A stretch of 64,000 nt of DNA from Bacteroidia bacterium (GTDB lineage Bacteria > Bacteroidota > Bacteroidia > B-17B0 > Aurantibacillaceae), in NCBI GenBank assembly GCA_036676295.1, contig JAKFDE010000035.1, positions 18,727 through 82,726 on the forward strand, in the 5' to 3' direction. Numbering within the stretch: the first letter of the stretch is position 1; every line of letters starts with the position of its first letter. The position numbers and the translations under genes were made by a program. The notes under the pieces are model-generated. The model made no database searches. It was not told where the DNA came from and saw only the letters and a program-made list of their open reading frames with translations. This document shows positions 37,170-45,432 of this stretch, in pieces.

Positions 37170-37613
37170 ATGCAAAAGATCACAAATAGACATGAATTAA
37201 AAAGTGCCATACAGCAATTGGAACAGCAGCAAATGGAAGAGTGGGCGTTGTTAAAAGACGAATATAGTGATGCCTGTAAAAATCTGAGAGCTGAAACTAA
37301 AATTCAAAACCATAATGAAAGTACAAGTGTTACAACTGAATTAATAGGCACCGGATTAAGTATTGCAGCAGGTTATTTTTCAAGAAAAATTGTCCCGGAT
37401 TTTTTACCCGGCACTTTAAAAGGATTGTTAAAAACATTCATGCAAATGAGTGTTACAAATTTTGTTTCAAAACATACGGATGAAATGAAATTAGCAGGAC
37501 AGTATTTTGCTCATCGGATACTTACTAAAAAAAATCCACCATCATTAGTTCCTGAAAAAACACTGAATCAGGAAAATAATTATCAGGGACAGGATGATGC
37601 CATTGTGTATTAA
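37170..37613 (+). CDS. Hypothetical protein
   Basis: 147 aa ORF immediately following the YtxH/holin-like genes. No motif recognised. Confidence 0.4.
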   Translation: MQKITNRHELKSAIQQLEQQQMEEWALLKDEYSDACKNLRAETKIQNHNESTSVTTELIGTGLSIAAGYFSRKIVPDFLPGTLKGLLKTFMQMSVTNFVSKHTDEMKLAGQYFAHRILTKKNPPSLVPEKTLNQENNYQGQDDAIVY

Positions 37614-37680
37614 TAATTCAAAAAAAAATGCCTCTGAAAGCCCAATAAAATCAGCTATTTTTAAATTATTTTTAATTTTA

Positions 37681-37713
37681 TTTGGAACTAATGATTTTTA
37701 TGCTTTAAATTTG
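37681..37713 (+). promoter_or_regulatory. Putative promoter of the SAM-riboswitch/met leader transcript
   Basis: TTTG (37681-37684), N21, TAAATTTG (37706-37713), ~30 nt upstream of the riboswitch P1 stem. Confidence 0.45.
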
Positions 37714-37745
37714 CAACGAATTATTACCCACCCATTGTGTGTATT

Positions 37746-37877
37746 AATTTATAAAGAAGTGGCGAGAGAATAGGCTCATTGACCCACTGGCAACCAACTC
37801 AAAGTACAGATGTTACAATCAGTATTGGAAAACAGGTGCCAATTCCTACTCCGATGAAAAGCGGAGGAAAATAAATT
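37746..37877 (+). promoter_or_regulatory. SAM-I (S-box) riboswitch aptamer
   Basis: P1 AAUUUAU (37746-52) pairs with AUAAAUU (37871-77). ...GUGGCGAGAGAAUAGGCUCAUUGACCCACUGGCAACC...GGUGCCAAUUCC UACUCCGAUGAAAAGCGGAGGA reproduces the conserved GGCAACC / GGUGCCAAUUCC junctions and the P4 hairpin (CUCCG/CGGAG). Lies upstream of metX-hom. Confidence 0.8.
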
Positions 37878-37889
37878 AAAAACAAAAAA

Positions 37890-38006
37890 ATGAAACACAC
37901 AAAATCAAAAACAAACAACAAATTCAGTGTTCAAGGTGTAACCTGTAATTCAATTTCTGCTTTCTTCATGATGGCCTGTATGTGTTGCTATTGCTGCATG
38001 TGCTAA
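37890..38006 (+). CDS. Cys/Met-rich short ORF (38 aa), candidate met/cys leader peptide
   Basis: ATG is 13 nt after the riboswitch P1. MKHTKSKTNNKFSVQGVTCNSISAFFMMACMCCYCCMC*; 10 of the last 12 codons are Met or Cys. Below the ORF-track size cutoff. Confidence 0.55.
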   Translation: MKHTKSKTNNKFSVQGVTCNSISAFFMMACMCCYCCMC

Positions 38007-38132
38007 GCTAGTTTTCCCTATTGATCTTATCGGAAAATTTAACCTTGGCAAATCCAAGGCAGGTTTGATGTATTCTTTATTCAAGAATTAGTCAACCTCA
38101 ATTTTTTCAATCATCACTTAATTCAAATCATC

Positions 38133-38369
38133 ATGAAAACAAATAGAAATTTTAATACAACAGATATAACTACAAATAACTTGATCGGAGAAATTGGTCA
38201 CCGTCATTTTTTAGAATTGCAAGCTAATTTTGGTTTTGCACAAAGAGGAGGCGTTAAATTCCCGTTAGGTAATACAAATCATAATAAACGCTTGGCCAGT
38301 GATATCAATATTTTGAATTCACAAGAGCATAAACAATTAATTTTTTCGGAAGTTATTTTTAGTAATTAA
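38133..38369 (+). CDS. Hypothetical 78 aa protein (orphan ORF upstream of metX)
   Basis: ATG-initiated ORF ending 7 nt before metX. No recognisable motif, so it may not be coding. Confidence 0.3.
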   Translation: MKTNRNFNTTDITTNNLIGEIGHRHFLELQANFGFAQRGGVKFPLGNTNHNKRLASDINILNSQEHKQLIFSEVIFSN

Positions 38370-38376
38370 ACAGATC

Positions 38377-39432
38377 ATGAGTCAATATAAATATCATTAT
38401 AAAAAAAGATTTCTTCTTGAGAGTGGTTTGTCATTACCTCATTTAGAAATTGCCTATCATACTTACGGTACATTAAATGCCGATAAGAGCAATGTGATTT
38501 GGGTGTGTCATGCGCTTACAGCTAATAGCGATGTGTTTGATTGGTGGAATGGTTTGTTTGGAGAAAATGATCTGTTTAATCCAAAGGAACATTTTATTGT
38601 ATGTGCTAATAATTTAGGTTCTTGTTATGGTACTACCGGTCCTTTTAGTATTAATCCGGATACAAAACAACGCTGGTACAGTTATTTCCCAAGTATTACC
38701 ATCAGAGATATTGCTAATGGGTTGCAATTGTTAAAACAACATCTAGGTATTGAAAAAATCCATACACTGATAGGTGGTTCGCAAGGAGGACAAATTGCAC
38801 AAGAGTGGGTATTACATGATAAGAGTGTGACTAGTAATTTAATATTGATCGCTACCAATGCACAACATTCTCCCTGGGGTATTGCTTTTAACGAATCGCA
38901 ACGCTTAGCTATTAAAGCAGATCGTACTTATTTTTCGAATTTGGATAATGGCGGAGAGAAAGGATTGCAAGCAGCGCGTAGTATTGCATTGTTGAGTTAT
39001 AGGAATTATCACACCTATAAAGAAACTCAAACCGATATTAAGCCACAGGTAGGCAATCATGCCGCAGCATCCTACCAACGTTATCAGGGAGAGAAATTGG
39101 TAAAACGTTTCAATGCCTATTCTTACGTGAGATTATCAGAAGCAATGGATTCTCATGATGTTATCCGTGACAGATGTTTTAGTGTAGAATCTGCTTTAAA
39201 TGAGATTACTTCTAATACACTGGTTATTGGAGTGACGACAGATGTGCTGTTTCCAATAGAAGAGCAAAAGCTGTTAGCTAAATGCATCAAAAGATCGGTT
39301 TATAAAGAAATTGAGTCTTTATATGGTCATGATGGATTTTTAATAGAAACAAAACAACTGTCAAAACACATCACTGAATTTTTTGAAACTAACAATAAAC
39401 AAATAAAACAACTAACCACTTTAAACAAATAA
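38377..39432 (+). CDS. metX: Homoserine O-acetyltransferase
   Basis: 351 aa. LESG..LPHLEIAYHTYGTLN...NVIWVCHALT N-terminus and GGSQGG nucleophile elbow. Confidence 0.9.
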   Translation: MSQYKYHYKKRFLLESGLSLPHLEIAYHTYGTLNADKSNVIWVCHALTANSDVFDWWNGLFGENDLFNPKEHFIVCANNLGSCYGTTGPFSINPDTKQRWYSYFPSITIRDIANGLQLLKQHLGIEKIHTLIGGSQGGQIAQEWVLHDKSVTSNLILIATNAQHSPWGIAFNESQRLAIKADRTYFSNLDNGGEKGLQAARSIALLSYRNYHTYKETQTDIKPQVGNHAAASYQRYQGEKLVKRFNAYSYVRLSEAMDSHDVIRDRCFSVESALNEITSNTLVIGVTTDVLFPIEEQKLLAKCIKRSVYKEIESLYGHDGFLIETKQLSKHITEFFETNNKQIKQLTTLNK

Positions 39433-39434
39433 AA

Positions 39435-40682
39435 ATGAGCAAAGAATTAAAAATAGGATTATTCGGATTTGGATGTGTAGGCCAGGGACTTTACCATGTG
39501 TTAAACAATAGTACCGGCTTTAAAGCTGATATTGTAAAGATAGGCGTTAAGAATAAAAATAAGGAACGAACGGTTGCTAAAGAACTGATCACTTTTGATA
39601 AAGGAGACATTCTTAACAACCCTGAAATAGACGTTGTGGTGGAATTAATTGATGACGCTACAGAAGCTTTTTTGATCGTGAGCGAAGCGCTGAAAAAAGG
39701 CAAACATGTTGTAACAGCTAATAAAAAATTATTGGCTCTACATTTACAGGAATTATTAGATCTGGCACAGCAAAGCAACGTATCCTTGTTGTATGAGGCT
39801 TCTGCTTGCGGAAGCATCCCTATCATCAGAACTTTAGAAGAATACTTTGATAACGAAGAGTTAGAAAAAGTGTCGGGTATTTTTAACGGTACCACTAATT
39901 ATATTTTAACAAAGACGATCAGCGAAAAACTATCTTATGCTGAAGCATTAAAACAAGCACAGGAAAAAGGTTTTGCCGAATCAGACCCAACTAATGATGT
40001 TGAAGGTTTTGATGCAAAGTTTAAAGCTGTTATTCTGGCATTGCACGCTTTTGGTGTCATTATTAAATCTGAGGATGTGTTAAATTTAGGTATTACCACA
40101 TTGCATGATAATGACATTAAATATGCTTCAGAAAAAGGGTATAAAATTAAGTTGACCCCAATTATTCAGCGTTTGGAAGATGATAAAGTAAGTGTGTTTG
40201 TCGCTCCAAGATTTATTAAAACCAGTAATCATTTGTTTAATGTAGATAATGAGTTTAATGGTGTGATCGTAGAAGGTAAGTTTTCGGGCGAACAATTTTT
40301 GCAAGGAAGAGGAGCGGGAAGTTACCCAACCGGAGCGGCTGTATTATCAGATATCTCAGCTTTATCGCATGGTTATAAATATGAGTTTAAAAAATATACT
40401 CAAAAACATAAACCACAGTTTACCAATGATGTATTGTTAGATGTTTATTTCAGATATAGCTCTGTTTTAGATCTAGAAAAGATAGAATTCACAGAGATCA
40501 AAGAAAAATATACAGGAAGTGATTACAATTACGTAGTTGGAAAGGTGAAGCTTCAAACCCTGATCAAAGAAAGAGGTTATATTTTGAGTAATAATTTATT
40601 CATTTCATTAGTAAATGATAGCGTTAGTTTAGATAAAACAGTAATTAAAACAGAACTTAAAAAAGAGAAACAGTTGGCTTAA
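39435..40682 (+). CDS. hom: Homoserine dehydrogenase
   Basis: 415 aa. GLFGFGCVGQG NAD-binding site, GSIPII, GIFNGTTNYILT and FAESDPTNDVEGFDAKFK motifs. Confidence 0.9.
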   Translation: MSKELKIGLFGFGCVGQGLYHVLNNSTGFKADIVKIGVKNKNKERTVAKELITFDKGDILNNPEIDVVVELIDDATEAFLIVSEALKKGKHVVTANKKLLALHLQELLDLAQQSNVSLLYEASACGSIPIIRTLEEYFDNEELEKVSGIFNGTTNYILTKTISEKLSYAEALKQAQEKGFAESDPTNDVEGFDAKFKAVILALHAFGVIIKSEDVLNLGITTLHDNDIKYASEKGYKIKLTPIIQRLEDDKVSVFVAPRFIKTSNHLFNVDNEFNGVIVEGKFSGEQFLQGRGAGSYPTGAAVLSDISALSHGYKYEFKKYTQKHKPQFTNDVLLDVYFRYSSVLDLEKIEFTEIKEKYTGSDYNYVVGKVKLQTLIKERGYILSNNLFISLVNDSVSLDKTVIKTELKKEKQLA

Positions 40683-40748
40683 TTATTTTGTTTTAATTCC
40701 TACTGAATTAGTAGTATATTTGTTACATAATTGAAAAACGAATTGATT

Positions 40749-41210
40749 ATGTTACAAAAGAAAACAAAATATGCGATAAAAGCCTTACTGGCACTGGCAA
40801 AACAATACAAGGATAATAAACCTATGAGGATCTCAGAAATAGCGGAGACCGAAGGGATTCCCAGAAAATTCCTAGAAGCGATTATGCTAGATTTAAAACA
40901 TAATGGCATAGTAGGGAGTAAAATGGGATCAACGGGCGGTTATTATTTAACCAAACACCCGGAGGAAATTATGCTAAGTAATGTGATCCGGTTAACCGGA
41001 GGGCCAATAGCACTGCTGCCTTGTGTGAGTTTGAATTTTTATGAGCCCTGTGTTGAATGTGTGAGTGAGGAGATCTGTGGATTAAGAAATGTGATATTGG
41101 AAGTGAGGGAAGCGAGTATTAAGATCCTTTCAAAGACAAGTTTGTTGGATATTTTATTAAGAGAAAAAAAGTTAGAAAAAAAAGTTAAACCATTGAAAAC
41201 AAAAGGATAG
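40749..41210 (+). CDS. Rrf2-family transcriptional regulator with four-Cys cluster
   Basis: MLQKKTKYAIKALLALA wHTH N-terminus. C-x8-C-x2-C-x5-C (LPCVSLNFYEPCVECVSEEICG), as in Fe-S-binding Rrf2 proteins. The ORF-track start at 40731 is TTG, so ATG at 40749 is preferred. Confidence 0.8.
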   Translation: MLQKKTKYAIKALLALAKQYKDNKPMRISEIAETEGIPRKFLEAIMLDLKHNGIVGSKMGSTGGYYLTKHPEEIMLSNVIRLTGGPIALLPCVSLNFYEPCVECVSEEICGLRNVILEVREASIKILSKTSLLDILLREKKLEKKVKPLKTKG

Positions 41211-41310: not shown

Positions 41311-41385
41311 ATGAAAAAGACGCCATTACATAAATTATTTTCTACAAAGCACATGATGTATTGTTGGATGCAACGTTGTTGTTAA
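41311..41385 (+). CDS. Met/Cys-rich leader peptide (24 aa) of the AKR-sir operon
   Basis: MKKTPLHKLFSTKHMMYCWMQRCC*; 6 of the last 10 codons are Met/Cys. An antiterminator/terminator pair follows directly. Confidence 0.65.
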   Translation: MKKTPLHKLFSTKHMMYCWMQRCC

Positions 41386-41412
41386 CGGAAGGATATTGTG
41401 TACAATATAAAA

Positions 41413-41441
41413 CCCCTCCGTTTGCACGGTGGGGTTTTTTT
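41413..41441 (+). terminator. Attenuator terminator upstream of the AKR-sir operon
   Basis: CCCCTCCG (41413-20), loop TTTGCA, CGGTGGGG (41427-34), then T7 (41435-41), 37 nt before the AKR ATG. The upstream CGGAAGG (41386-92) can instead pair with CCCTCCG (41414-20), enclosing an ATATT/AATAT mini-hairpin. That pairing is the candidate antiterminator. Confidence 0.8.
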
Positions 41442-41477
41442 ATAATCAAAAATTAGAAAATAGTTAAAACAGAAAAA

Positions 41478-42356
41478 ATGGAAAAAATTTATATCAGCGA
41501 AACAGGACCAGAAGTGTCCGCAGCCATCTACGGTTTTTGGAGATGGAACACTGTAGCTTTAGCAACAGAAAAAAAAGTTGAAGACATTATCAATTATAAT
41601 TTGGAATTAGGTGTAAACACCTTTGATCATAGCAATAATTACAGTAGTGGAAAAATCGAAGAATTATTTGGTAAGGTCATTTCAAAAAGTAACATTAACC
41701 GTGAGGATATTATTATTTCTACGAAATCAGGGATCAGAAACTTTTCGAACAAAAGTTCTAAAGGTGTTTATTACGATCTAAGCCCTGAACACATTACCAA
41801 AAGTATTGAAGAATCATTACAGCATTTAAAAACAGATTACATTGATATCTTTTTGTTAGAACATTACGATCCTTTGTATCAGGTTGAGGAAACTGCTTCG
41901 GCATTAATTAAATTATTACGCAGTGGCAAAGTAAAGCACATCGGTGTTTCTAACTTTAATGTCTTTCAACACCGTTTATTAGCCTCTCATTTAAATCAGC
42001 CAATTGTTACCAATCATATCGAATTGAATTTGTTGCAAAGTAGTGCTATTGATGATGGACGTTTGGATTTTATCAAAGAGCAATACAGTAAACCAATGGC
42101 CTTTGCTCCTTTAGCCGGTGGTCGTATTTTAAATGGTAAAGACAAGAAAGCGATCTCTGTTAGAAAAGCATTAACTGAAATTGCTAAAAATCATTCGATC
42201 AATGTAGAGCAAGCGGCGGTTGCATGGTTGTATAAACTAGGTGCTTTGCCAATTATTGGCAGTACGGATAAAAAACGTATTAAGAATGCGGCGAGCGCTT
42301 ACTCGGTTAATTTAAGTAAAGAAGAATGGTATCAATTGTATAACGCTGCAAAATAA
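41478..42356 (+). CDS. Aldo/keto reductase family oxidoreductase
   Basis: 292 aa. AKR (YdhF-like) pattern FDHSNNY, STKSG, DIFLLEH and HIGVSNF. Confidence 0.8.
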   Translation: MEKIYISETGPEVSAAIYGFWRWNTVALATEKKVEDIINYNLELGVNTFDHSNNYSSGKIEELFGKVISKSNINREDIIISTKSGIRNFSNKSSKGVYYDLSPEHITKSIEESLQHLKTDYIDIFLLEHYDPLYQVEETASALIKLLRSGKVKHIGVSNFNVFQHRLLASHLNQPIVTNHIELNLLQSSAIDDGRLDFIKEQYSKPMAFAPLAGGRILNGKDKKAISVRKALTEIAKNHSINVEQAAVAWLYKLGALPIIGSTDKKRIKNAASAYSVNLSKEEWYQLYNAAK

Positions 42357-42361
42357 TTTAT

Positions 42362-44488
42362 ATGCAAAGTTTTAGATCAGAATTAGAATTAGTCAATCAC
42401 TCAGGCAAAGCCTTGGTAGAAAAAGATATCATTGATCTGGATAAAAAGATCCGTGAATTTCGTGAAGGAAAAATTCATGAAGAAAAATTCAGAAGTCTTC
42501 GTTTAGCTCGTGGCGTTTATGGGCAAAGACAACAAGGTGTTCAGATGATCCGTATTAAATTACCATTTGGTAAAGTGAGTACTCAACAATTGTTGCGTAT
42601 TGCAGATATTAGTGATGAATATTCTAATGGAAATTTGCATTTAACCACTCGTCAGGATATTCAAATCCATCATGTGAGTTTGGATAGAACACCTGAGTTA
42701 TGGGCTAAGTTGGAACAAGAGGATATTACTTTACGTGAAGCTTGTGGTAATACGGTTCGTAATATAACGGCTTCTGCCGAAGCAGGTATCGACCCACATG
42801 AAGTATTTGATGTATCGCCTTATGCACATGCATTGTTTACTTATTTTTTGCGTAAACCATTTTGTCAGGAAATGGGAAGAAAGATCAAGATGGCTTTTTC
42901 TAATAATGATCAGGACACTGCTTTTACTTATATCCATGATTTGGGATTTATTCCAAAAATAAAAAATGGCGAAAGAGGATTTAAAGTTTTAGTGGGAGGT
43001 GGTTTAGGCGCTCAGCCATTTTTGGCGCAAACTGCTTTTGAATTTTTACATGAAGATAAACTAATTCCTTTTGTGGAAGCAACACTCAGAGTGTTTGATA
43101 GACATGGGGAAAGAGCCAGCAGACATAAAGCTCGCATCAAATATCTGATCAATAAAATTGGAATAGAAGAGTTTTTGAAATTGGTGAAAGAAGAAGAAAA
43201 AGCGTTGTTGGTAAAAGAATTTGAAATTGATACACGTTTAGAAAATGGTATAACCACTCTAAAAACAGTTTTACCAAAGGACTTGCCTGTTGTTAATGAA
43301 GATGATTATAAATTGTGGTTACAGACAAACACGTTTGAACAAAAACAAGCAGGGTTGTTTGGTGTGTATGTAAAAGTACAATTAGGAAATATTTCATCTG
43401 ATAAAACACGCAAGTTCGTAAAAGCGATTGCTAAGTACGCAGATACTGAAGATATACGTATTACGATCAATCAGGGCTTTTTATTAAAAAATATTGCTAA
43501 AGAAGAATTGCCATTTCTTTACAATGAATTGAATCGAATTAAGTTAGCTACACCTGGGTTTGATTCGGTAGCGGATATAACGGCTTGTCCTGGAACTGAT
43601 ACCTGTAATTTAGCTATTTCAAACAGCACCCATATTTCGGTGGCTTTAGAAAATGTGATCACGGAAGAATTCCCTGAATTGGTTCATAATCATGATATTA
43701 AAATCAAGATCAGTGGTTGTATGAATTCTTGCGGGCAACATGGGTTAGCTCAAATTGGCTTTCATGGCAGTTCTTTTAAAGTTGGTACAACTGTAGTTCC
43801 TGCTTTGCAAGTGTTATTGGGTGGTGGAACAGTAGGTAATGGTAAAGGTAGAATTTCGGAGAAAGTAATTAAAGTGGCCAGTAAACGTGCTCCGGATGTG
43901 TTAAGAAAATTATTTAATGATTTTGAAGCGAATGCGGTTGAAGGAGAATATTTTAATTCGTACTACGATAAAAAAGGGAAAGATTATTTCTATCAGTTAT
44001 TAAAACCAATAGGAGATAATAGTTCTTTAACTCCTGAAGAGTTAATTGATTGGGGACAGGAAGAGAAATTTGCGACAGCAATTGGAGTAGGAGAGTGTGC
44101 CGGTGTGGTGATCGATTTGGTAGCGACCTTGTTTTTTGAAGCGGAAGAAAAATTAGCCTGGAGTGCAGAAGCCTTTGAAAATAAACAATGGGGTGACAGT
44201 ATTTATTATTCTTATGCCGCTTTTATAAATGCTGCTAAGGGATTATTGTTAGATAAGCAAGTGCATGTGAATACACAACATGGAGTAATTAATGATTTTG
44301 ATAAAACATTTGTAGAATCAGGATTGATAAAATTAAAAGGTGAGTTTAAAGAATTGATCTTACAAATTAATAAACATGAGCCATCTATAGAGTTTGCTGA
44401 ATACTATTTCAACCAAGCAGAGCAGTTTTTAAATACCGTTAAAGTTTATAGGAATACTAATGTCACCCTGAGCGAAGTTGAAAGTTAA
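42362..44488 (+). CDS. sir: Assimilatory sulfite reductase (ferredoxin-type nitrite/sulfite reductase hemoprotein) with ~140 aa C-terminal extension
   Basis: 708 aa. Siroheme/4Fe-4S Cys motifs (ACPGTDTCNLA, SGCMNSCGQH) and duplicated NIR_SIR ferredoxin-like halves. Extra helical C-terminal domain. The last codons (NVTLSEVES) lie in a REP half-unit. Confidence 0.88.
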   Translation: MQSFRSELELVNHSGKALVEKDIIDLDKKIREFREGKIHEEKFRSLRLARGVYGQRQQGVQMIRIKLPFGKVSTQQLLRIADISDEYSNGNLHLTTRQDIQIHHVSLDRTPELWAKLEQEDITLREACGNTVRNITASAEAGIDPHEVFDVSPYAHALFTYFLRKPFCQEMGRKIKMAFSNNDQDTAFTYIHDLGFIPKIKNGERGFKVLVGGGLGAQPFLAQTAFEFLHEDKLIPFVEATLRVFDRHGERASRHKARIKYLINKIGIEEFLKLVKEEEKALLVKEFEIDTRLENGITTLKTVLPKDLPVVNEDDYKLWLQTNTFEQKQAGLFGVYVKVQLGNISSDKTRKFVKAIAKYADTEDIRITINQGFLLKNIAKEELPFLYNELNRIKLATPGFDSVADITACPGTDTCNLAISNSTHISVALENVITEEFPELVHNHDIKIKISGCMNSCGQHGLAQIGFHGSSFKVGTTVVPALQVLLGGGTVGNGKGRISEKVIKVASKRAPDVLRKLFNDFEANAVEGEYFNSYYDKKGKDYFYQLLKPIGDNSSLTPEELIDWGQEEKFATAIGVGECAGVVIDLVATLFFEAEEKLAWSAEAFENKQWGDSIYYSYAAFINAAKGLLLDKQVHVNTQHGVINDFDKTFVESGLIKLKGEFKELILQINKHEPSIEFAEYYFNQAEQFLNTVKVYRNTNVTLSEVES
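44462..44484. repeat. REP half-unit embedded in the 3' end of sir
   Basis: gtcaccctgagcgaagttgaaag closely matches gtcaccctgagcggagtcgaagg at 50468-50490. Confidence 0.6.
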
Positions 44489-44497
44489 TTATAAGTC

Positions 44498-44569
44498 ATG
44501 AAAAAAAGTAAATATATCTATATCAAGTTTGACAGTTGTTGTTGCTGTTGTGCTATCATAATATTTTAA
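44498..44569 (+). CDS. Penta-cysteine short ORF (23 aa), candidate cysteine-sensing leader peptide
   Basis: ATG is 9 nt after the sir stop. MKKSKYIYIKFDSCCCCCAIIIF*, with five consecutive Cys codons tgt tgt tgc tgt tgt at 44537-44551. Confidence 0.6.
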   Translation: MKKSKYIYIKFDSCCCCCAIIIF

Positions 44570-44643: not shown

Positions 44644-45432
44644 ATGAGTAAAAAAATATATCCAAAATTAACCTTAGTAGGCGCGGGTCCTGGTGATCCT
44701 GATTTGATTACTGTTAAAGGAATTAAAGCCTTAAATACAGCAGATGTCATTTTATATGATGCTTTAGTAAATCCTGAAATTTTAAAACACGCTTCGTCTG
44801 AAGCCTTAACCATTTATGTAGGGAAACGTAATCACGAACATATTTATACTCAAGAACAAATAAATACCTTGATTGTTAATTACGCATACACTCACGGACA
44901 TGTAGTTCGTTTAAAAGGCGGAGACTCATTTGTCTTTGGTCGTGGTCAGGAAGAGATCAATTACATACAATCCTTTAATATTGAAACAGCTGTTGTCCCC
45001 GGTATATCCAGTTCTATTGGTGTTCCTGCATTGAGTGGTATTCCTGTTACACACCGTGGTGTGAGTGAAAGCTTTTGGGTAATTACAGGAACAACCAGAA
45101 CTAACCAGTTATCGGATGATGTGAAATTGGCAGCTGAAACCAATGCAACCGTTGTTATTTTAATGGGAATTTCAAAATTGAAAGAGATCGTAGAAATTTA
45201 TAAGAAAGAAAGAAAGTATGATACTGCTATTGCTTTGATCCAAAATGGTTCTTTAGAAACTGAAAAAATTGCTTTAGGAACGATTGATACAATTTTAAAA
45301 ACGGCTAAAAAAGAAAAGATTGAAGCACCTGCTGTTATTGTGATTGGTGACGTTGTGAAGCAACATATTAAATTTCCAGTAGAATTCTCAAATCTTAATT
45401 CATTATTAACTAAGATAGGAGGAGTGTCATGA
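44644..45432 (+). CDS. cobA: Uroporphyrinogen-III C-methyltransferase
   Basis: 262 aa. LVGAGPGDPDLITVKG SAM-binding N-terminus and RLKGGDSFVFGRG motif. Confidence 0.9.
   Translation: MSKKIYPKLTLVGAGPGDPDLITVKGIKALNTADVILYDALVNPEILKHASSEALTIYVGKRNHEHIYTQEQINTLIVNYAYTHGHVVRLKGGDSFVFGRGQEEINYIQSFNIETAVVPGISSSIGVPALSGIPVTHRGVSESFWVITGTTRTNQLSDDVKLAAETNATVVILMGISKLKEIVEIYKKERKYDTAIALIQNGSLETEKIALGTIDTILKTAKKEKIEAPAVIVIGDVVKQHIKFPVEFSNLNSLLTKIGGVS

Follow-up and report, generated by a model that had tools for sequence, protein, structure and literature searches.

The leader of a methionine biosynthesis operon was analysed in a 64-kb stretch of contig JAKFDE010000035.1 from a Bacteroidia bacterium (hereafter the window; coordinates without a locus handle are those of the window). 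In this leader a SAM-I riboswitch, which senses S-adenosylmethionine (SAM), is followed by a small open reading frame (sORF) ending in a run of Met and Cys codons and subsequently by ORF78, metX and hom. An earlier reading of the same DNA, made from its letters alone (the sequence-only reading), had proposed that the riboswitch gates a Met/Cys-sensing leader peptide, and this is the hypothesis that is favoured in silico by the comparative and folding evidence presented here. We consider it fairly probable that the leader is a composite one, in which the SAM-I riboswitch controls translation of the Cys/Met leader peptide and the latter controls ORF78-metX-hom. The arrangement probably lets the cell read SAM and the supply of charged tRNAs on one transcript. 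The basic layout is as follows.

37681..37713, + strand: candidate promoter of the Bacteroidota type, consisting of TTTG (37681-84), 21 nt and TAAATTTG (37706-13), read from the sequence
37746..37877, + strand: SAM-I (S-box) aptamer, Rfam RF00162, 66.1 bits
37890..38006, + strand: leader ORF of 38 codons, MKHTKSKTNNKFSVQGVTCNSISAFFMMACMCCYCCMC, from ORF reading and conservation
38133..38369, + strand: ORF78, 78 aa, first long cistron, ending 7 nt before metX, from tblastn and database proteins
38377..39432, + strand: metX, from MetX models
39435..40682, + strand: hom, 2 nt after metX, from Pfam Homoserine_dh

A SAM-I aptamer upstream of metX-hom had been called at 37746-37877 in the sequence-only reading, and the search with RF00162 bore it out at exactly these positions on the + strand (66.1 bits, gathering score 44.4, E = 3.5e-13). 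The alignment was full-length (model positions 1-108, four-way junction P1-P4) and exceeded the curated gathering score, so that by the covariance model the element qualifies as a bona fide SAM-I aptamer. Its P1 helix is entirely A-U (AATTTAT/ATAAATT), and an extension by 2 bp is possible. The Rfam scan returned no other match anywhere in the 64-kb window. The gene assignments downstream of the leader stood as well, metX being recovered by MetX models and hom by Pfam Homoserine_dh. The promoter was called by its likeness to the established Bacteroidota consensus, and transcription likely starts at about 37720, approximately 15 nt upstream of TTGTGTGT. A TAnnTTTG motif is located 28-38 nt 5′ of the aptamer in all members of the window clade and within 80 nt in 56 of 65 loci.

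For the comparative analysis, 80 loci encoding MetX relatives (55-79% identity) were fetched, nearly all of them from Bacteroidota and many from uncultured organisms, and all were scanned with Rfam. A homologous SAM-I aptamer (55-82 bits) lies upstream of the metX operon in 64 fetched loci, which together with the window gives 65 SAM-I leaders. An ATG-initiated ORF of at least 12 codons begins 4-23 nt after P1 in 64 of these 65 leaders, and the distance from P1 to the ATG is 7-15 nt in 61 of the 64 ORFs. The sORF of the window had been called correctly in coordinates and composition: its ATG (37890-92) starts 13 nt after the last base of P1, leaving 12 intervening nt, Met or Cys is encoded by 10 of the last 12 codons, and 7 of its 38 residues are Cys. 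A comparison of the spacers between SAM riboswitch and metX, which the sequence-only reading had suggested as a check, showed that such sORFs recur, with at least 5 Cys or Met among the last 12 residues in 57 of 64 leader ORFs, read in each case from the first ATG that follows P1. ORF lengths cluster at 31-50 codons, and stop codons interrupt the two other frames in almost all loci. The central part of the peptide is free to vary in sequence and length; position, frame and the Cys/Met tail are kept throughout the phylum.

The specificity of this association was apparent when the window and about 640 kb of related loci were scanned blindly in six frames. At least 7 Cys or Met among the last 12 residues were found in 50 ORFs, all of them on the metX strand; 45 represent the first ORF of a metX leader and 4 a second type of leader ORF described below. 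Directly upstream of 44 of the 45 first leader ORFs lies a SAM-I aptamer, and in the remaining locus (L019) the contig ends before the aptamer. The Cys/Met-tailed ORF behind SAM-I is more than chance, such tails being essentially absent elsewhere in the approximately 640 kb.

Cys codons of the leader ORFs are interchanged freely (131 TGT, 137 TGC), while in all 20 clade members the last codon is TGC and also forms part of the antiterminator strand introduced below. Free flips together with an invariant last TGC are the pattern expected of a translated ORF with functional tail codons and an RNA-structure constraint on the last codon. The ORF body is rich in A (44%) and poor in G (11%, with C at 19%; there is more C than G in 60 of 61 loci), a composition that would fit both an unstructured initiation region and a rut-like loading site for Rho. 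No meaningful match to the sORF was obtained in Pfam and NCBIfam, and a protein database query with a 41-aa homologue gave three matches, unnamed or annotated just as 'hypothetical protein'.

Among the loci, cultured carriers include Pedobacter, Parapedobacter, Ancylomarina and Marinifilum, with Pedobacter yulinensis, Parapedobacter lycopersici and Marinifilum flexuosum as examples. The leader ORFs of the Marinilabiliales (Ancylomarina, Marinifilum) end in Met/Arg repeats without Cys, namely MMRMRMMMRMI, MMRMQMMMRML and MMRMQRMMRML (L073 2143-2256, L075 2204-2323 and L080), which suggests a Met-only sensor, possibly with involvement of the Arg codons. In L068 (Arsenicibacter), L070 (Spirosoma) and L074 (Fibrisoma), the aptamer is followed by ORFs of only 13-18 codons (MIYSQQRMPRAWLPIWAC, MLYIHCCMPLAGR), and in L057 (Flammeovirga) by no ORF; these leaders may use a different platform.

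According to the sequence-only reading there was no obvious terminator and no platform sequestering a Shine-Dalgarno (SD) sequence. Three structures had thereby been overlooked: a helix at the sORF start region (P0), an antiterminator/terminator-like alternative over the stop codon and an anti-start (AS) helix at ORF78. Between the aptamer and the ATG itself, folding and a consensus terminator scan revealed no terminator or other platform. P0 comprises the following elements.

37735..37742, + strand: 5′ strand of P0, TTGTGTGT, the 5′ flank of the aptamer, pairing with 37895-37902 in the minimum free energy (MFE) structure
37878..37894, + strand: unpaired A-rich loop with the sORF ATG (37890-92), between P1 and P0 in the MFE structure
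37895..37902, + strand: 3′ strand of P0, ACACACAA, codons 2-5 of the sORF, from MFE, duplex energies and covarying variants

The MFE structure of 37722-37925 (z = -3.1) combines the aptamer, whose P1 gains 2 bp, with P0 and holds the AUG in a 15-nt A-rich loop between them. As the post-AUG strand was placed in differing registers by MAFFT, column-wise covariation was abandoned and P0 was assessed by the duplex energies of cognate and non-cognate strand pairs. The P0 duplex reaches about -10 kcal/mol, compared with about -5 for shuffled sequences, in 32 of 40 clade loci, and cognate pairs (-10.4 kcal/mol) are more stable than non-cognate ones (-5.8 kcal/mol). Two-sided variants were found as GUGUGU/ACACAC, as GUGCG/CGCAC (L029) and as UGUGC/GCACA (L027, L028, L042). 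In L014, L022, L030 and L031 the helix takes a pre-AUG form, in which a contiguous extension of P1 (CGUAAUU/AAUUACG) ends 4-5 nt before the AUG. Because the 3′ strand of P0 covers codons 2-5 of the sORF, the MKHT at its start is conserved at the nucleotide level.

Initiation in Flavobacterium johnsoniae needs low structure from -20 to +20 and upstream adenines (PMC6847099), so that P0 (+6 to +13) and P1 (from -13 upstream) could plausibly act in combination as a sequestering platform that needs no SD sequence. The adenines at -3, -6 and -12 of the sORF start fit the SD-less initiation context of Bacteroidetes, and the cost of opening -13..+16 amounts to about 6.8 kcal/mol. Most of the clade has, 3′ of the predicted transcription start and 5′ of P0, a conserved TTACCCACC(C) element (37724-37733) that resembles the 3′ strand of P2 (ACCCAC). 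A competition of this conserved ACCCACC 5′ of P0 with the 3′ strand of P2 was considered and rejected, as no covariation with P2 was found.

The second part of the leader, at and behind the Cys/Met run, contains a set of mutually exclusive and stacked hairpins.

37978..38003, + strand: G-U-rich hairpin inside the Cys/Met run ('1:2'), sequestering the last Cys codon in the absence of a ribosome, from folding
38001..38007, + strand: 5′ strand of the antiterminator, TGC-TAA-G, i.e. last Cys codon, stop codon and G, from RNAalifold and folding with set ribosome positions
38010..38039, + strand: hairpin H1 (AGTTTTCC ... GGAAAATT), stacked inside the antiterminator, from folding and RNAalifold
38043..38059, + strand: hairpin H2 (CCTTGG CAAAT CCAAGG), a terminator-like stem, from folding and pairing conservation
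38061..38098, + strand: hairpin H3, conserved and formed in all modelled states, from folding
38100..38108, + strand: T-run AATTTTTTC, a near copy of the 5′ arm of H1, from folding

Two of these hairpins, TTTTCC/GGAAAA and CCTTGG/CCAAGG, had already been noticed in the sequence-only reading and were recovered as H1 (38010-17/38032-39) and H2 (38043-48/38054-59). The 3′ strand of the antiterminator (38044-38050, CTTGGCA) overlaps the 5′ arm of H2, and H2 is followed by an imperfect T-rich tail (38060-38082). When the window leader was folded without a ribosome, the run hairpin (37978-38003), H1 and H2 were formed. With a ribosome stalled from M27 to about C33, UGCUAAG (38001-07) pairs with CUUGGCA (38044-50) and stacks on H1, and H2 is lost; with the ribosome on the last codons or on the stop codon, H2 re-forms. 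The antiterminator is thus predicted solely with a ribosome stalled early in the run. When the ribosome covers the stop codon, the T-run AATTTTTTC is able to pair with the 3′ arm of H1, enclosing H2 and H3.

RNAalifold, applied to 18 relatives, independently selected the antiterminator and H1. One pair of H1 carries compensatory changes (CG 8, UA 6, UG 4), as does one pair of H2 (UA 6, UG 6, CG 4), the latter hairpin being paired to 94%; for the antiterminator 97% of the cells are paired in a register-specific manner. A crude automatic MFE test reproduced the switch in 25 of 61 loci, among them nearly all close relatives. The same design is found in L024 with a canonical terminator (CUUAGC..GCUAAG followed by a T7 tract, U7 in the RNA), the 3′ arm of which has the same sequence as the end of the sORF, and several further loci have a good U-tract after the H2-equivalent hairpin. 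H2 of the window is terminator-like and represents a putative terminator.

A third long-range interaction was found between the beginning of the Cys/Met run and the start of ORF78.

37965..37974, + strand: 5′ strand of the AS helix, TTCATGATGG (RNA UUCAUGAUGG), codons F26-M27-M28, pairing with 38128-38137 in the MFE structure
38128..38137, + strand: 3′ strand of the AS helix, TCATCATGAA (RNA UCAUCAUGAA), covering the ORF78 start codon (38133-35), from MFE and covariation by type

The AS helix closes the whole leader domain in the MFE structure, and its variants differ by type on both strands: in L008 and L011 there are three Met codons, and ORF78 is preceded by an additional CAT, so that AUCAUGAUGAUGG pairs with CCAUCAUCAUGA (-19.9 kcal/mol); L014 pairs CAUUAUUUC..UGUGUU with AACACAGAAAUAAUG; and L039 pairs CCAUCUGUU with AACAGAUGG. 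Over 33 loci the cognate mean was -10.4 kcal/mol and the non-cognate mean -7.8 kcal/mol (Wilcoxon p = 0.001, the data not being independent), and some clades are without an AS helix. With a realistic ribosome footprint, the pairing probability of the ORF78 AUG was 1.0 in the free state and in the stop state and 0.6 with the ribosome stalled at M27-C32. As in translational attenuation, a segment of the leader ORF is predicted to base-pair with the start of the downstream cistron, which the modelled stalled ribosome frees in part. Control of ORF78 initiation could spread to metX and hom by coupling, the cistrons being only 7 and 2 nt apart.

On the composite reading, the leader would operate as follows. 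With SAM bound, the stack of P1 and P0 would keep the 30S subunit off the SD-less start of the sORF; in the untranslated leader H2 would be formed and the ORF78 start sequestered, the G-poor body would additionally be open to Rho, and the operon would be off. At low SAM the sORF would be translated. If Met-tRNA and Cys-tRNA were plentiful, the ribosome would arrive at the stop codon and mask the antiterminator strand, H2 and the AS helix would re-form and expression would be low, with passing ribosomes probably giving some basal expression. If Met or Cys were short, the ribosome would stall at M27-C32, the antiterminator would replace H2, the ORF78 start would be freed and the operon would be on. 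The ligand dependence of initiation, the stalling, the termination and the coupling are what we infer here, whereas the features, their conservation and the alternative folds were computed.

A second Cys/Met sORF in the same window supports the sensing role of such ORFs.

41311..41385: second Cys/Met sORF, MKKTPLHKLFSTKHMMYCWMQRCC, within a feature region at 41311-41442, without a riboswitch

It is directly followed by a textbook antiterminator/terminator (ACGGAAGG.../CCCCUCCG...GGUGGGG followed by U7; in DNA, AACCCCTCCG..CGGTGGGGTT followed by T7). Downstream lie genes for an aldo-keto reductase (41478-42356) and a sulfite-reductase-like protein (42362-44488), and the sORF is kept in L002, L006, L010 and L025.

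Several observations weigh against the composite reading and have to be set beside the alternatives. The nearest-neighbour model predicts P0 with or without P1 and shows no cooperativity between the two helices; the SAM dependence of sORF initiation is for this reason something we infer rather than compute. In clades with the ATG only 7-10 nt from P1, P0 is not significant, and the short P1 extensions that reach the AUG there are not significant individually. Six of the seven antiterminator pairs never vary, so that covariation neither supports nor refutes this helix, and the MFE switch fails in over half of the distant loci. The U-tract behind H2 of the window is poor (4 U in 10), and the consensus scan found no + strand terminator in 37300-38700, H2 being called on the minus strand only owing to an upstream A-tract, while Bacteroidota terminators are mostly near-canonical (PMC13613805). 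Moreover, the reason for an induction of metX-hom under Cys shortage is not obvious.

Some of these points would be accommodated if aptamer and sORF were two independent sensors in series without any gating, the sORF being a constitutively translated Cys/Met attenuator, the aptamer acting via Rho access, RNA stability or an unrecognised structure, and P0 merely closing the aptamer. The formation of P0 regardless of P1 and its insignificance at 7-10 nt spacing speak for such an organization, as do the rut-like, G-poor body with C over G and the coupling of riboswitches to Rho established elsewhere (PMC12360218). We nevertheless regard it as unlikely, given the tight spacing between P1 and the ATG conserved at 7-15 nt, a P0 or P1 extension that always abuts or covers the start region, and a stretch between aptamer and ATG that contains no terminator or other platform. 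A different question is the nature of the output. H2 may be purely structural and regulation translational, with the AS helix masking the ORF78 start as in erm leaders or mycobacterial Cys sORFs, and/or based on Rho-dependent polarity. This is a variant of the composite model and not an exclusive alternative, and we hold it to be possible, with some reserve. It would explain the weak U-tract behind the window H2, the type-specific compensations in the AS helix and the tight packing of ORF78, metX and hom, 7 and 2 nt apart, which makes coupling possible, and there is a mycobacterial precedent that works without termination (bioRxiv 10.1101/834739). Intrinsic termination is favoured instead by the good U-tracts behind the equivalent hairpin in L024 and several other loci, by the precise register of the antiterminator as chosen by RNAalifold and by the canonical terminator of the sister sORF in the window.

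Two further explanations concern the sORF itself. The sequence-only reading had also considered a stable Cys-rich product, for example a metal-binding peptide or a precursor of a ribosomally synthesized and post-translationally modified peptide (RiPP). On this view, to which a sulfur-binding peptide may be added, the place behind the riboswitch would do no more than set its expression. A 38-aa peptide with 7 Cys could indeed bind metals, and the adjoining ORF78 has no assigned function. This idea found no support and is very improbable: Cys/Met richness is kept but no Cys spacing or pattern, the middle varies freely in sequence and length (31-50 aa), and the versions of the Marinilabiliales are Met-only (MMRMRMMMRMI). 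No family match was obtained beyond the three 'hypothetical' database entries, no modification enzymes are encoded in the operon or nearby, where the neighbours are ORF78, metX and hom, and the stop codon is embedded in the predicted RNA switch. That the UG-rich tail is instead kept for RNA structure alone, with the ORF as a by-product, we likewise consider highly unlikely. The run does fold into a G-U-rich hairpin and joins two alternative helices, but in 57 of 64 loci the tail shares the frame of the first ATG behind P1 although lengths vary and the other frames are closed, third positions flip freely between T and C except in the last codon, and different clades reach Cys/Met richness via different nucleotide sequences.

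ORF78, described in the sequence-only reading as an orphan of 78 aa, is not one: tblastn located it between leader and metX in 26 related loci, and 25 database proteins match it at 52-95% identity. In the window clade it is always the first long cistron between leader and metX. The family follows the pattern NLIGE..H..F..LQ...G.AQRGG...........RL.S..N.L...E...L.F.E.IFSN, and its invariant residues include Gly19, Gln30, Arg38-Gly39-Gly40, Arg53, Glu65 and the C-terminal Asn78. No relative was found in Pfam, NCBIfam or the PDB (the PDB profile search was empty), and the AlphaFold model (pLDDT 51) was too poor for a fold search.

The composite leader shares parts with several known systems. As in the S-box/SAM-I leaders of Firmicutes (RF00162), the aptamer belongs to the same class, precedes Met/Cys biosynthesis genes and presumably switches expression off at high SAM. 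The Firmicutes leaders employ a terminator/antiterminator platform, whereas here no terminator directly follows P1; a further helix continues P1 and flanks the leader ORF start codon, the organism being one that lacks SD sequences, and the terminator-like hairpin lies 165 nt downstream, where it is predicted to be governed by a ribosome and not by the aptamer. With the trp, his and leu attenuators it has in common a predicted three-state logic of 1:2, 2:3 (antiterminator) and 3:4 (terminator) pairing, in which a terminating ribosome at the stop codon masks segment 2. It differs from them in the position of the regulatory codons, which are the last 12 of a long ORF, in the weak U-tract of the window, and in two additions, the helix with the ORF78 start and the riboswitch upstream. 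Two serial sensors of related metabolites on the leader of one methionine gene are also present in Bacillus clausii metE, where tandem SAM and adenosylcobalamin (AdoCbl) riboswitches form a logic gate; in the leader described here the proposed second sensor is a ribosome reading Met/Cys codons and not a second aptamer.

A ligand-sensing RNA and a sensory upstream ORF (uORF) are combined in one leader in the Salmonella mgtA/mgtL system, reportedly described by Park et al. in 2010. There, a Mg2+-sensing RNA acts with the proline-codon uORF mgtL and with Rho, and translation of the uORF decides the fold of the downstream RNA (PMC12360218), as is proposed here. Ligand, aptamer and codons are different; mgtL is contained within the sensing RNA, whereas the SAM-I aptamer is upstream of its uORF and appears to gate initiation there, and the two inputs of the present leader report on the same pathway (SAM, Met, Cys). 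Short ORFs with Cys-codon runs upstream of sulfur or Cys genes are known as Cys-codon attenuators from mycobacterial polycysteine leaderless sORFs (bioRxiv 10.1101/834739), from cys leaders of Actinobacteria (PMC1262725) and from the cysS uORFC-8-2 of Rhodobacterales (PMC8632094), where stalling under shortage of Cys-tRNA relieves repression. In comparison with these, the sORFs found here belong to another phylum, are much longer (31-50 codons) and end, at the very C-terminus, in a mixture of Met and Cys codons, and are placed behind a riboswitch with a dual predicted output (antiterminator and AS helix).

Full-text literature searches, with most subscription journals outside their coverage, turned up no description of a Cys/Met leader ORF behind a SAM riboswitch or of leader peptides of this kind in Bacteroidota; a flavobacterial transcriptome paper treats leader-peptide attenuation of amino-acid operons in general terms only (PMC9723704). 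In Bacteroidota, riboswitch control is poorly understood, since an SD sequence that could be sequestered is missing and the aptamer often has no terminator behind it. The present leader offers a concrete and testable answer for a riboswitch class that is among the commonest: the start of a leader ORF would be clamped and a ribosome would deliver the output. We judge it an evenly balanced proposition that this applies phylum-wide, i.e. that a sensory leader ORF is the standard expression platform of SAM-I on the Met-biosynthesis operons of SD-less Bacteroidota, with the aptamer clamping the start through P0 or a P1 extension, and the Cys/Met run reporting via antiterminator and AS helix, as a graded gate with two inputs (SAM and charged tRNA-Met/Cys). 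If true, this would be a regulatory architecture not described so far, and a natural two-input device in which one RNA reads a cofactor, SAM, as well as the charging state of two tRNAs. Candidate attenuators with Cys/Met codons, a type described from Actinobacteria and alpha-proteobacteria, occur widely in the sulfur metabolism of Bacteroidota, three of them in the window alone. Genome annotation misses these sORFs and the conserved 78-aa protein. The leader also represents a compact part responsive to SAM, Met and Cys for the engineering of Bacteroidota, including gut and environmental species.

The third candidate of the window lies further downstream.

44498..44569: third Cys-rich sORF, MKKSKYIYIKFDSCCCCCAIIIF (ending ..DSCCCCCAIIIF)

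It directly follows the sulfite-reductase-like gene, and a gene for a cobA/sirohaem-type methyltransferase (44644-45432) begins 75 nt further on. Hairpins follow the sORF, but they have no U-tract, and folding predicted no ribosome-dependent switch.

An Rrf2-family regulator is encoded at 40731-41210 (Pfam Rrf2, 114 bits), between hom and the second Cys/Met attenuator, and its product may be an additional sulfur or Fe-S regulator of the cluster. In L002, hom is directly followed by the sORF without a gene in between, so that the Rrf2 gene represents an insertion or loss that differs among relatives. Matches to Flavo-1 RNA (RF01705) were obtained in three relatives, namely L007 (101-181, minus strand), L011 (2974-3064, + strand) and L028 (1897-1972, minus strand), a few hundred bases to 3 kb from the SAM leader; none lies in the window. 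The leaders of the Sphingobacteriales type (L044, L046, L052, L053, L064, L067, L069, L076, L077) carry a small conserved hairpin (TTTGGTAGCAATACCAA) between promoter and SAM aptamer, which is not present in the window clade. A further Cys/Met-rich sORF (MVCSSFCCMMCCIATACLM) was found at 478-537 of L051, a Pelobium metagenome-assembled genome, far upstream of the metX leader, and is possibly the leader of another operon.

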